Shown here in pieces: positions 59,596-64,000 of a DNA stretch of 64,000 bases. The notes under the pieces were generated by a model that did not search any database, had not been told where the DNA came from, and was given only the letters and a program-made list of their open reading frames with translations. The DNA comes from Eremomyces bilateralis CBS 781.70 (lineage: Eukaryota). Position numbers and translations under genes: made by a program. The stretch's first letter is position 1, and each line of letters starts with the position of its first letter. The stretch is taken from NCBI GenBank assembly GCA_010015585.1, contig ML975149.1, one strand, 5' to 3'.

Positions 59596-61038
59596 CTATA
59601 ACTTGCTAGGCTTATCAAGCGCCGCACTCTGAGCCCTAAAGTGTTTCACCAACTCCCTGATTGACAAATCCAGGAGCACATCCTCGCTACCACCCGGTAT
59701 CCGAGCACCTGGGATCTCACGGTACAGCTCTGGTTGCGAATTAGTATCCTGTTTTCATATACCAAGCCAGAACAAGGGGATGGATAGACTTACTCTCAAC
59801 GACCTCTCCCTGTCCACTCCGGGTATATCCATTCCCCCCAAACAACAACACCGCCGTCCTCACGCATTCATCCAGCACCATCCCCGCCTTCGCCTTCGCC
59901 AACGCCGTCAACCCTCCCAACTCCCGATCTGCATCCTCCTTCTTCAACTTCGTCATCATATACACGAACTGCTCCACCCACGCCGACAAGCTCTCCAACT
60001 CCGCCCCGGCCTTCGCCAACCGATGCCGCACCACCGGCTGCTCGATCAGCGCCTTCCCAAACGCCTCACGCTTCATCACGTACTCGAACGCCGACGACAG
60101 CGCCACGCGCGCCGACCGCGTTACCCCGATCGCGATATTCAGCCGCTCGTGGTTGAAGTTCGTCATGATCATCTTCATGCCTTGGCCTTCTTCGCCGATG
60201 AGGTTCTCCACGGGCACTTTGACGTCGTCGAGCTCGATGAAGGTCGTGCCGGAGGTGGCGGCGCCGCTGTTTTTGAGGCGACGCATGGACACGCCTTCGT
60301 GGCCAAGGAGAGGGACGACGAGGAGGGAGAGGCCGGTGCGGCCAGGACCGCCGGTTCGGACGGCCATGGAGGCGTATTGTGACCAGACGCCGTTGGTAAT
60401 CCTATGAGCGGGATATCAGTGACTGTATTCAAGGCTGTCTGCCAAGATACTCACCATTTCTTCGAGCCATTCACGATATAGTACTTGCCACACGGTGACT
60501 TCTTGGCAGTAGTTTGTATATTAGCGACATCACTACCCGCACCCGGCTCCGTGATCGCAATGCAAATCCGCTTCCCTCCCCGCATCAGGTCCGGCAGGAA
60601 CCGATCCTGCAACTCCTTGCTCCCGTATTTGAGGATCGGAGGCACGCCGTACGCCATACCCGCGATCACCGAGTTCGGCGGCCCCGCCAGCCCCGCTCTC
60701 CGGATCTCGTTTACATACACGTAAAAGTGCAGGTAATCAAAGTCCTCCAACCGCAATCCGCCGGGCAGCTCGTAGATGCCGAGTCGGTTCAACGCCTCGA
60801 CGGGGAGCGGGGCCGGGAGGTTGGGAATGAGCATGTTAGCCTCGGTGAACTTCTGGAACACTTCCGGAGGGACTTCGCCTTCGTCTTCCCATTGAAGCGC
60901 ATTCTCATGCAGGTTCTTGCCGATGAATTCGCGGCAGACCTTTTGCCATTTGCGGTGGGATTCGTTGAAATATGGTGACGGGAGGCCGGCGAGCCACGGG
61001 GGTTCTGAAAAGGGGATGACCTTTGCTGGAGAGGCCAT
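59596..61038 (-). CDS. Acyl-CoA dehydrogenase with PTS1 (-SKL) (3 exons)
   Basis: IPFSEPPWL, CIAITEPGAGSDVA, VNGSKKW/ITNG, NFNHERL, REAFGK, LFGGNGYT, RIPGGSEDVLLDL; last codons AGC AAG TTA TAG. Confidence 0.93.
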
Positions 61039-62562
61039 TGTAAGTGGTTGAAATAGAAGCCCCGAAGAGGGTAGTGATTTTGTATACGGGCGACTTCAAG
61101 GGTGGAAGTGGATGACAAGAAAAAGACCTGTAGCCAAGAACGATACTAAGAACCTGCTGTGATCGACGTGTATAGCTATGCTTTCTTGAAGAATACTCAA
61201 GTCTTGAGGACAATGAAATATAGAAAAGGCCGCCGTACAGCACTCGGCTTGTCCCCTCAAGCTCGGCTAGAGGTAAGTACAGGTATGGGGTACTCCTCCG
61301 ACCCCGAGGTGCCAATACTACCTGTCTGCATCATCCAATCAGCGTATGGAAGAATAGCTGTAGATCACCTGATCCTTGTGAGTATCGCGCTCTAAATGCT
61401 GACTTAAAGCTGATCTCCGACATGTGGAACACGAAGTAGGACTGTTGGCTGTGGAGATATACCGAAATCTACCGCGACGGACAACACTGGCGACTCTGGG
61501 GTCGGGAGGTTGCTGGTGGGCCCGAGGCCGGATGCCGCCCGATGCCCACATAGCCGTGGGCACAGACCGTGATTGGCTGAGGCCCCGTATTTAGTCGCGT
61601 AGAAATCGGGCTTCCGATCCGAGACAATCAGATATCTAGTCACCTCACCAGGAGCATAAAAGGTTGAAGCGAATATTTGAGAAGATTTCACCTTGGAGGT
61701 CAAACTGTATTGGCAGCTAAGGTCGAATGAAGTGAAGGCCTGTGGACTAAGTAGTGATCTAGTCTGGATATTCAGCAAAGCGCACATCTGATTGGGTTAA
61801 TAGAATACATGATTTGCCGCTAAGAAGGTCGCATGCCATTGATTGGATAATCTCAATCCCACCTCCTCCTCACGCGGCTAATACCACCACGTCTCCTGGA
61901 CTTTATATAGACGAAGATCAAAGTGAGGACGACTAAGATAATCGAAGATATATTGATAAGTATGTATAATGCTGCATGATTGCAGCGGCAATATGATAAT
62001 ACATGCATCAGCGGTATCAACAGGTATCCTCCACCTCATATGAACTCCGCTTGCCATGAAATAAATCCATCGTGCTGGGTATAAAACAACTGTACAAGAA
62101 CAGAATTCCTCACCCTCTACCAACTCAACTGCTCCTGAACTCCATATGCACCTCAATTACTACCCTCACCCATCCATCGTTACCAACACGACCTCCAACC
62201 TTCAGATAACCCGCGAGAAGAGCCTTCCACCCATCCCCCACACCCTGCCCCCTCTTTCACATAATCTCACACTTCAAAACCCTCCTCCTCCTCTTCCTCT
62301 TAGGGCCCACCCCAGCCCGGCCCCCCATCAATCCCCCGGCCTCCCCCTCCCTCAACACCGCCTGCCTCCAATCTGACGCCCCATCCGACTCCTGTCGCCC
62401 CTCACCATCCTCCCGTTCAATCCCCGCTGCGTCGAGCATCTCGTCGCGGTCGCTCGGGTGCCCGTGGCGGGTGAAGGCGCGGGGGATGGTCATGGGTGGG
62501 GGGAAGGGGGAGCCGGAGGACGATGGGGGGGACGGGAAACGGGTTTCTTCTCGCGGTAATTG

Positions 62563-64000
62563 TCACCTGTGGCCTCTTTCGCGGGGCCGGGTTTGGTGGT
62601 GGTAGGTTGGGGGGGTGTCGTCGTAGGCGATGCGGATTTCGTCGCTGTGGCGGGAGGGGTCGAGGTCAGGTGGGTGGTCGTGGGATCGTGGGTGCGACTT
62701 GGGGCTGGTGTCGTGGTAGCCTGTGACGGCGTGGTGGATGGGGGTGGACTCGGGGCTGATGCTGCCTTGCTTCGTGTGGCGTAGGGAGCGCTGGCGGCCG
62801 GATGACGGGGGTGTGTTCGGGAGTGGTTTATCGATTGGGCTCGGCCCGACCGGAGTCTTTGGGCTCGGTCCAGCAGGTGTGCGAGCGCTGGGAGTGCGTT
62901 TGTGGGAGTGTGCGGGTGTGCGTGTCGTAGTGGAGCTTGTTCGGGTTGTCGCCGGAGATGTTCGTTGTGGGGTTGTAGAAGGAGGGGACACACGTCTTGA
63001 GGCTGTTCGTGATGGAGGACTTCCAGAAGAGCGACGGCGGAGTCTGGTTGTGGTGGATTGGGGTGATCGTTTCGAATCAGAGGGTTGTCGGGCGTGCCGG
63101 GGTTGTGTGGATGCCTGTGAGGTAGGGTAAATCGGCATGGGAATTGATGGTACTCCCACTGGCCGGGCGGTGGGCGGAATGTATGTGTAGGCATAGGACG
63201 CTGACACAACAGGGTCGTGCAGTGGACCAGAAGGTCGCGGATGACGCATAGACGGGAGTTGAACGGCAGCTGTTCGTGCTGGGCTTTCTGCAGTAGTGTC
63301 TCGCCTTGGAGAAGGTTTGGTGGTCACTGGAGCAGCCCGTGGTGATTCCCGAGACCGCGCTGGTGATGGCTGACTCGTTTGCGGCACCACGGGCTGTTGC
63401 ACTGCTCGTTCCGGTGTCGATTCTAGTGGCGTATGCTCTGATCTTGCAGTGCGCTCATTCTTTTTCCCTTTCCCTTGCGGCGTTCGCTGTTCTTCGCCCT
63501 CTGCATCTGGTTGGGGTGTCGGCTGCTCGCCAGGCGCAACTCGTCTCATCACGCCGCCGAGTAAGCCGACCAACCCTGCAACAACCTCAAACTCGGTGTC
63601 CGTCAACCCTTCGTCGGCGCGATATACCTCCCTAACCGCTCCTCGTGCGAGTCGCTTGGCCCCATCATAATCATGGGCGACATCCCACAAGAACGCGGAA
63701 TGCTCCAACGCGACCGAAAGTCGAAGGGGATGGGAGCCGGGAAGGAGAGTTGTGGATAGACTCGTCGCATGTGCGAATAGCGATGTTGTGGTCGGTATGT
63801 AGTTCAGAGCTGGAAGGATGAACGAGCTAGGATGTGGAGGAAGCGGTGAAAATCCCGGTGGTAGCCCTGGTGGCAATTGAGTTCGAGCTACTGAGCTTGG
63901 CCCCGCACCCGAAGTTGGAGTCGGAACCAGACCCGTGTTCTCGGGGCGTAGGGGAGTAATATTGGAGTATGGATTGGTGATATACGAGGCTTCCGACGTG
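62563..64000 (-). CDS. Divergent 14-3-3-like domain protein with disordered tail (5' end outside the window; candidate readthrough to 62257)
   Basis: Frame open to the window edge (TSEASYITNPY...); LLPGSHPLRLSVALEHSAFLWD...AKRLARGAV resembles 14-3-3 C-terminal helices. Confidence 0.75.
   Translation of the reverse strand, partial: TSEASYITNPYSNITPLRPENTGLVPTPTSGAGPSSVARTQLPPGLPPGFSPLPPHPSSFILPALNYIPTTTSLFAHATSLSTTLLPGSHPLRLSVALEHSAFLWDVAHDYDGAKRLARGAVREVYRADEGLTDTEFEVVAGLVGLLGGVMRRVAPGEQPTPQPDAEGEEQRTPQGKGKKNERTARSEHTPLESTPERAVQQPVVPQTSQPSPARSRESPRAAPVTTKPSPRRDTTAESPARTAAVQLPSMRHPRPSGPLHDPVVSASYAYTYIPPTARPVGVPSIPMPIYPTSQASTQPRHARQPSDSKRSPQSTTTRLRRRSSGSPPSRTASRRVSPPSTTPQRTSPATTRTSSTTTRTPAHSHKRTPSARTPAGPSPKTPVGPSPIDKPLPNTPPSSGRQRSLRHTKQGSISPESTPIHHAVTGYHDTSPKSHPRSHDHPPDLDPSRHSDEIRIAYDDTPPTYHHQTRPRERGHR

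Follow-up and report, generated by a model that had tools for sequence, protein, structure and literature searches.

A 64,000-nucleotide stretch of contig ML975149.1 from Eremomyces bilateralis CBS 781.70 (GenBank assembly GCA_010015585.1), hereafter the window, carries on its minus strand a gene for a 14-3-3-like protein whose reading frame ends at a TGA codon and then stays open for a further 101 codons, finishing with a polybasic run and a CaaX box. In our view, the most consistent interpretation is that this gene makes a soluble protein together with a rarer, farnesylated and membrane-bound form derived by readthrough of the TGA, and we put the probability of this reading at roughly 0.6. 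In the gene product, a long disordered tail would follow a helical domain that is 14-3-3-like but divergent. Most ribosomes would terminate at the UGA (62565–62563) and release the soluble short protein, and a minority would insert an amino acid at UGA-CAA-UUA, a leaky context of the tobamovirus type, and read 101 more codons. The long product would end KRKRRRR-VLK-CEIM, the cysteine would be modified by farnesyltransferase, and the farnesyl group and the basic run would together hold this isoform on negatively charged membranes in the fashion of K-Ras4B; alternatively, the basic run may be a nuclear signal. That readthrough takes place in this organism, the level that it reaches, and the prenylation and localization of the product are what we infer from the sequence. 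The comparative evidence for readthrough as such is good at the level of the family, and for this gene the evidence is reasonable.

The part of the gene that lies in the window is an open reading frame (ORF) of 478 codons (62566–63999, minus strand, as are all features described here), which reaches the edge of the window at 63999 without closing and has its 5′ end beyond it. Its long tail is disordered and rich in Ser, Thr, Pro and Arg, and its C-terminus reads ...PRERGHR, the last codon being AGG (62568–62566). The TGA that follows (62563–62565), which is the proposed leaky stop, is read directly from the sequence, recurs in the contigs of a run from another study (X3, below) and occupies the homologous position in 24 related loci with an extension. 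Behind it are CAA TTA (62557–62562), an exact match to the readthrough hexamer CARYYA, and the in-frame extension (62260–62562, 101 codons by frame reading), whose C-terminal sequence is GPKRKRRRRVLKCEIM ahead of a second TGA (62257–62259). At this end seven consecutive Lys/Arg residues (KRKRRRR, 62281–62301) are followed by three residues, VLK, and by the final four codons, CEIM (62260–62271), so that the order is KRKRRRR-VLK-CEIM. The preliminary description of this DNA had given the same anatomy, AGG TGA CAA TTA with 101 open codons and an end at 62257, and had called the context of the stop leaky. All of its coordinates were correct on re-reading, the hexamer match is exact and the relatives carry contexts of leaky classes. 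CEIM has the features expected of a CaaX box, namely Cys fourth from the end, an aliphatic residue at a2 and an X residue that selects farnesyltransferase, with Glu at a1.

By itself the open frame is weak evidence, since the 303 nt of the extension remained open in 1115 of 20000 mononucleotide shuffles (5.6%) and since the 64 kb window has 69 stop-to-stop ORFs with a length of 150 codons or more, of which 7 are followed by an open frame of 101 codons or more. The two other frames of the extension close after 23 and 47 codons. A stop followed by CARYYA is found at one of these 69 long ORF ends, that of the present gene, and it is the combination of open frame, leaky context and CaaX end that stands out. 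The base composition fits coding sequence up to the second stop. The G+C content is 0.65–0.67 through the extension and drops to 0.42–0.54 just past 62257, and at third codon positions of the extension frame the G+C content (GC3) reaches 0.77 in each half, which equals that of the final 330 nt of the main ORF (0.766), compared with 0.58–0.63 at the other two codon positions.

The TGA does not stem from an assembly error. We compared the window with the runs X1 and X2, its possible source, with X3, which comes from a different sample and study, and with X4, which gave no cover. The TGA is present in X1 and X2, and the X3 contigs over 62456–62587 and 62558–62654 show no differences from the window, TGA included, which answers the concern that the stop might be a sequencing error. 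Splicing at the stop had also been raised as a possible objection; no joint was seen in the X3 contigs anywhere within 61500–64000, and they run unspliced across 62383–62654 at a depth of 194–353, compared with 461 in the ORF. A further X3 contig spans 61934–62242 at a depth of 424, and X3 cover is absent at 62256–62339. The depth is 3–7 at 61752–61919, as against 194–461 over the gene, which fits an intergenic gap in RNA data. The longest X3 record is 16.8 kb, compared with 120 kb for X1. None of the runs listed is on record as RNA; because of this contrast in depth and these short records X3 looks like RNA, which is a guess. If X3 is RNA, then the messenger RNA (mRNA) carries the TGA unedited, contains the extension unspliced and reaches to about 61934, and 61934–62256 is a probable 3′ untranslated region; this last assignment, made from the contig cover, is valid only on that condition.

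To place the stop in a comparative setting, we used 52 related metagenome loci from one alignment-based scan, each of which was read to its first stop and then to the next. Loci with introns in the domain (L021–24 and L045–47) were re-read for their true ends, the initial stops there having been intronic; L002, L014, L027, L042, L043 and L052 break off before any stop, and L024 is truncated short of its true end. In the 23 loci of the Pleosporales type (L001, L003–L013, L015–L020, L026, L029 and L045–47) the main ORF ends ...RQQR, ...REPS or alike. The stop is TGA with C as the next base in 23 of 23, continuing as CTA, CTC or, in L029, CAA TCA, which also conforms to CARYYA, and behind it lies an open frame of 43–59 codons (for example, 1194–1367 in L001). 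These extensions align as protein from the first codon past the stop and share a ...RKMEVQW... core and an S/T-rich ...SSTP stretch. Among nine distinct loci, the nonsynonymous proportion of differences in the extension (pN) was lower than the synonymous proportion (pS) in all 36 pairs, with a median pN/pS of 0.45 compared with 0.37 in the last 60 codons of the main ORF; for L001 and L011 pS is 0.415 and pN is 0.054. The public gene models of the Pleosporales-type orthologues stop at the TGA. One of 175 predicted proteins, P0068 (565 amino acids, from a public assembly), has Gln at the stop position of the family and continues through the extension, and would thus carry it constitutively.

When L044, a more distant locus described below, is counted with these 23, the loci that combine a TGA-C stop behind the homologous ...R or ...S with 43–69 further open codons number 24 of 52. 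The contexts found in these relatives (TGA CTA, TGA CTC, TGA CAA TCA and TGA CGG) fall in leaky classes: UGA-CUA, UGA-CGG and stop-CARYYA are named as leaky readthrough classes in the available part of PMC4132726, and portions of PMC4207609 and PMC4132726 describe UGA-CUA(G) as leaky in fungi and animals. For the hexamer in the window the nearest measurement is the OPRL1 reporter, in which, according to an excerpt of PMC4132726, readthrough at UGA with CARYYA was about 15% and depended on every base of the hexamer. A conserved UGA-C stop, a protein-like extension and an occasional sense codon make up the accepted comparative signature of programmed readthrough, and to judge from these alignments the 14-3-3-like family seems to use it. 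The earlier expectations for orthologous loci were thus largely borne out: the open frame behind the stop is kept, substitutions in the Pleosporales-type loci are biased towards synonymous ones, and the TGA is retained with a leaky-class context, although the exact CARYYA hexamer is not.

L044 is the locus that most resembles the window at the end of the extension. Its protein is 100% identical to P0121 and its nearest named relatives are from Tothia (72%), Venturia (67–68%) and Verruconis (68%), so that it is Venturiales-like. It shares 42% identity with the window in the domain. In the tree L044 belongs to a clade of 13 rows (support 100/99), with the window outside it on a long branch (1.57) near P0105 and L028. 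The ORF of L044, a single exon of 574 codons, has ...QDRER at its end, where the DNA reads AGG TGA CGG CGG, and its extension of 69 open codons, which stayed open in 742 of 20000 shuffles (3.7%), ends in a basic run at the same place as that of the window, CEIM in identical codons and TGA. The two tails are unalignable apart from the last 40 nt or so, and for the extension of the window the comparison covers about its 12 final codons. Comparison of the window with L044 shows that both keep a UGA-C stop behind the Arg that ends the main ORF, a frame that continues free of stops, and the basic-CEIM end. As the L044 extension contains no Met, a separately started downstream ORF is not what is conserved. 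Almost all predicted proteins of L044 relatives have their last residue at the same ...R, from which it follows that the stop is old. The extension of the window has no tripeptide of the peroxisomal targeting signal type 1 (PTS1), its end being EIM as in L044.

A conserved terminal CaaX box had been expected if the extension is functional. CEIM is indeed kept letter for letter after a basic run in L044, but it is absent from the 23 Pleosporales-type loci. A CaaX C-terminus was found in none of 175 predicted homologues (0 of 120 and 0 of 55), as is to be expected because gene callers stop at the TGA. Looser CaaX matches in L003, L004, L007, L019, L030, L033, L035, L036, L050 and L051 were rejected, being in other frames, far downstream or not CaaX-like (CRSR in L050). 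Scans of genome contigs and of viral contigs gave no match to the end block of about 40 nt that the window and L044 share. CEIM itself is listed as a predicted substrate of prenylation and cleavage in the yeast tables of all 8000 CXXX motifs of PMC9231725 (supplement files 7 and 8). For its prenylation, file 7 gives values of 1 for the support vector machine (SVM), PrePS and Freq and 0 for FlexPepBind (three of four predictors), and file 8 gives 1 in 13 of 13 models. Prenylation of the long form is accordingly a prediction drawn from one distant lineage and from these motif scores.

A number of observations weigh against the reading that we prefer. Outside the window a CaaX-ended extension was found in L044, one of the 52 loci, and no relatives of the extension peptide of the window were found among proteins of 319–1017 amino acids or among 1.84 billion representative proteins. 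A profile of the Pleosporales-type extensions did not match those of the window and L044 (E value of 6). The Pleosporales-type extensions end RLL, RML, FRP, SKN and others, none of them a PTS1 tripeptide, and no CaaX box ends any of the 23 and no Pfam match was found in their tail. Since these ends differ, lack CaaX and give no profile match, prenylation is not the family-wide purpose of the extension. The extension is absent in L025 and L030 (TAG TAG), L028 has TGA T, and L021–23 have TGA CGT with only nine codons behind it; L031–33 have unrelated sequence past the stop, and L034–41 with L048 form a separate, shorter clade. A likelihood based on codon usage, with 12 long ORFs of the window as its training set, does not separate the frames, even in the tail of the main ORF. 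The identification of X3 as RNA is a guess by the tool, and X3 is represented by contigs, which drop rare variants.

The remaining points of this kind concern the shared end block (62257–62300 in the window, 4985–5032 in L044; about 40 nt). The two blocks have three differences, all nonsynonymous and none synonymous, and the five bases past the second stop, AAGAG, are identical, as is the stop itself. The probability that eight synonymous choices would agree by chance ranges from about 4e-4, with codon usage as in the extension, to 6e-5, with that of the whole gene. The lack of synonymous change and the conserved post-stop bases point to a constraint on the RNA or DNA itself, beyond the peptide alone. 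This constraint could reflect a small terminal exon and its acceptor, some 3′ element, or the involvement of the block in a long hairpin. Such a hairpin, long and imperfect, is predicted at 62250–62570, where the folding energy is −156.2 kcal/mol compared with −137.8 ± 6.0 kcal/mol for shuffled sequences (z = −3.08; no shuffle out of 100 reached this value). In it the C-rich sequence immediately after the first stop is paired with G-rich sequence ahead of the polybasic run, and both stops are included. The L044 extension has z = −2.27. No conserved RNA structure was found behind the Pleosporales-type stops (consensus energy −1.95 kcal/mol). Judged from the folding predictions, the hairpin may either aid readthrough or be a by-product of Pro-rich followed by Gly/Arg-rich coding. 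We note that the sign of the GC skew reverses between about 62350 and 62500, the extension consisting of a C-rich arm and then a G-rich arm.

These features bear on the alternatives, of which the one that we would discount least, though we still find it unlikely, is that the stop is an ordinary one and the extension has no useful translation. The open frame would then be a by-product of a G+C-rich, hairpin-forming 3′ untranslated region and the block shared with L044 an RNA or DNA element. The shuffling result, the hairpin z scores in both lineages, a shared block without synonymous change and with five conserved post-stop bases, the uninformative codon-usage test and the want of protein relatives are all in keeping with this explanation. 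It requires, however, that the shared block should lie in the frame of the main ORF without an intervening stop in both lineages, and that it should spell a predicted prenylation motif after a basic run precisely at the frame end; it also leaves aside the protein-like extensions with pN < pS that the family retains behind the same TGA-C stop, and the GC3 periodicity in the correct frame. Alternative splicing, which we regard as quite improbable, would lead to a similar product. An intron of 270–285 nt from AG|GTGACA (62566) to an in-frame AG|G in the AGG run (about 62282–62297) would join ...RERGH to R(R)VLKCEIM and still give a prenylated minor isoform. Protein conservation in the Pleosporales-type loci begins at the first codon past the stop, the G before the TGA is not kept there (CGA TGA, AGC TGA) and GT is not conserved. 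The donor consensus in fungi has G at +5 and T at +6, and GTGACA in the window and GTGACG in L044 have neither. No CTRAY branch site was seen at a workable distance, the putative intron has a G+C content of 65% and its frame is free of stops in both lineages (expected by chance in 5.6% and 3.7% of cases), and the X3 contigs are continuous across this region, as described above. What can be said for splicing is that in-frame junctions do exist, from 62566 to 62297, 62291, 62288, 62285 and 62282 as well as a 114 nt one ending at 62453; that the window and L044 have in common both AGGTGAC at the stop and the run of AGG ahead of CEIM; that the sequence between the stop and the end block is unalignable between them; and that the block is conserved at the nucleotide level, as a small terminal exon and its acceptor might be.

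Adenosine-to-inosine (A-to-I) editing of the mRNA from UGA to UGG, perhaps in a stage such as sexual development and analogous to the large antigen of hepatitis delta virus (HDV), appears very improbable. The edited A would follow G, and A-to-I editing in fungi prefers U before the A. Conservation of TGA followed by C in the family is the signature of ribosomal leakiness, and the TGA is unchanged in the X3 contigs, although contigs drop rare variants. Editing would nonetheless suit the position of the stop at the foot of the predicted hairpin, and it has precedents: stop-loss editing is known in fungi (PMC13123824, in part), having been described at other stop codons of filamentous ascomycetes, and the farnesylated tail of HDV arises by stop editing (PMC7395443, in part). 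The idea that a gene normally running through to CEIM has here suffered a strain-specific nonsense mutation or sequencing error is close to refuted. GC3 and G+C are unchanged across the stop, as it would require. The TGA is present in X1, X2 and X3, it stands at the same place in L044 and 23 further loci, none of the 175 predicted homologues ends in CaaX, and nearly all of them stop at the homologous ...R.

Readthrough with farnesylation of the long form thus remains our preferred reading of the gene. A broader proposal can be made more tentatively, and we would give it slightly less than an even chance: that programmed UGA readthrough is ancient in 14-3-3-like scaffolds of the Dothideomycete type, that the hidden tail has lineage-specific jobs, and that it serves as a K-Ras4B-style anchor in the lineages of the window and of the Venturiales-like L044. 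Much less likely, by analogy, is that the farnesylated tail docks into the 14-3-3-like groove of the protein itself, as the Rnd3 tail does in 14-3-3 zeta according to the title of PDB entry 4bg6.

The assignment of the protein as 14-3-3-like stands as far as the fold is concerned but receives a Pfam score below the gathering threshold. The PF00244 profile matches residues 72–136 of the partial ORF (63592–63786), the C-terminal third of the helical domain, with 23.8 bits and an E value of 3.8e-05 over profile positions 140–204, the last third of the profile; the cutoff is 33.2. The L044 protein (26.8 bits) and P0001 (28.9 bits) are also under this threshold, and no Pfam match was found in the extensions of the window, L044 or L001. 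With residues 1–260 as the query, 170 homologous proteins were obtained, mostly from Dothideomycetes and many named '14-3-3 protein'. Among the best 120 of the 170, the named ones are nearly all from Dothideomycetes, mainly Pleosporales, and are about 515 amino acids long with 40–53% identity.

As the N-terminus of the protein lies outside the window, the fold was tested on the homologue L044 (AlphaFold, residues 1–331, with an alignment of 38 sequences). The model has a mean predicted local distance difference test (pLDDT) score of 69.8 and consists of two blocks of long helices separated by a disordered insert of about 100 residues, with eight helices of at least 15 residues and one short helix. 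All of the top PDB matches in a Foldseek search with this model are 14-3-3 chains, 14-3-3 zeta being first, with a probability of 1.00, template modelling (TM) scores of 0.61–0.69 on the target, E values from 3e-05 and about 11% identity. In this model, therefore, L044 has the nine-helix 14-3-3 fold. One of the matches, 4bg6, is by its title 14-3-3 zeta with the farnesylated, phosphorylated tail of Rnd3, which indicates that 14-3-3 grooves can hold a prenylated C-terminus. The family thus shares its predicted fold with the 14-3-3 proteins of PF00244 and differs from them in its sub-threshold score over the last third of the profile, in the insert of about 100 residues that splits the domain and in the disordered tail of 250–450 residues behind it.

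The membrane anchor of K-Ras4B is a polybasic run followed by a farnesylated CaaX box ending in Met. The predicted end of the long form has the same elements, a polybasic run and C-a-a-M, and differs in having Glu at a1 and in not being carried by a small GTPase. In its use of a stop codon the gene most resembles the cryptic PTS1 enzymes, for which the available parts of PMC4207609 and PMC4359377 describe a leaky UGA-C, two isoforms from each mRNA and a C-terminal signal exposed only on readthrough; the examples given there are UGA-CUA(G) in fungal and animal metabolic enzymes, with LDHB and MDH1 in mammals, and it is this context that the Pleosporales orthologues share. Here the hidden signal would instead be a polybasic run with a CaaX box, the extension is 101 codons long and the stop is followed by CAA UUA and not by CUA. 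With tobamovirus (type I) readthrough at stop-CARYYA the gene has the exact hexamer CAA UUA in common, a motif that also works behind UGA according to the portion of PMC4132726 consulted; it differs in being a chromosomal fungal gene, not a viral replicase, and in having UGA, not UAG. In HDV, as described in the excerpt of PMC7395443, a stop gates an extension with a farnesylated CXXQ box that alters the binding of the large antigen; there the stop is removed by RNA editing by ADAR, the extension is 19 residues long and the system is viral. Among the partly available sources of our literature search, the HDV large antigen was the only documented stop-gated prenylation found.

The preliminary description had stated that no readthrough-gated prenylation was known in this family; our literature search agrees with it, having found no description of such gating for a cellular gene or in a 14-3-3-like family. 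A screen of human readthrough extensions included prenylation sites, for which the part available gives no outcome, and then focused on peroxisomal signals (PMC4359377), and a screen of Arabidopsis extensions found no conserved prenylation site (PMC9293766). In peroxisomal import, the exposure of a targeting signal by readthrough is an established mechanism; for a lipid anchor we found no such cellular case. If our interpretation is correct, the gene would provide the first example from a cellular genome of prenylation that depends on readthrough of a stop codon. The soluble and the membrane-tethered scaffold would be translated from a single mRNA in a fixed proportion, which any influence on termination efficiency could adjust, and the current annotations of the family would all omit the long isoform. 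Alternaria, Pyrenophora and Ascochyta, which are well-studied plant pathogens, have homologous proteins with the same end and offer a readily testable case, as the loci with ends like theirs have a conserved UGA-CUA stop and a hidden tail that the public gene models cut off.

Three loci, L049–L051, were considered as further examples of readthrough and dropped. A conserved donor-like site, GGGTACGT, lies upstream in all three, about 100 nt before the apparent stop (about 2400–2530 in L049, 2150–2280 in L050 and 2310–2440 in L051), suggesting that this stop is intronic. Their last exon encodes a conserved C-terminal motif, R-E/R-A-I/V-L-R/K-x-L-Q/E-I-L, and the extension of the window contains a faintly similar WRQAVLRE. 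In the window itself, the stretch of low X3 depth lies in 61712–61919, between the 14-3-3-like gene and the next gene on the minus strand, an ORF at 60451–61038 that resembles the N-terminus of an acyl-CoA dehydrogenase.

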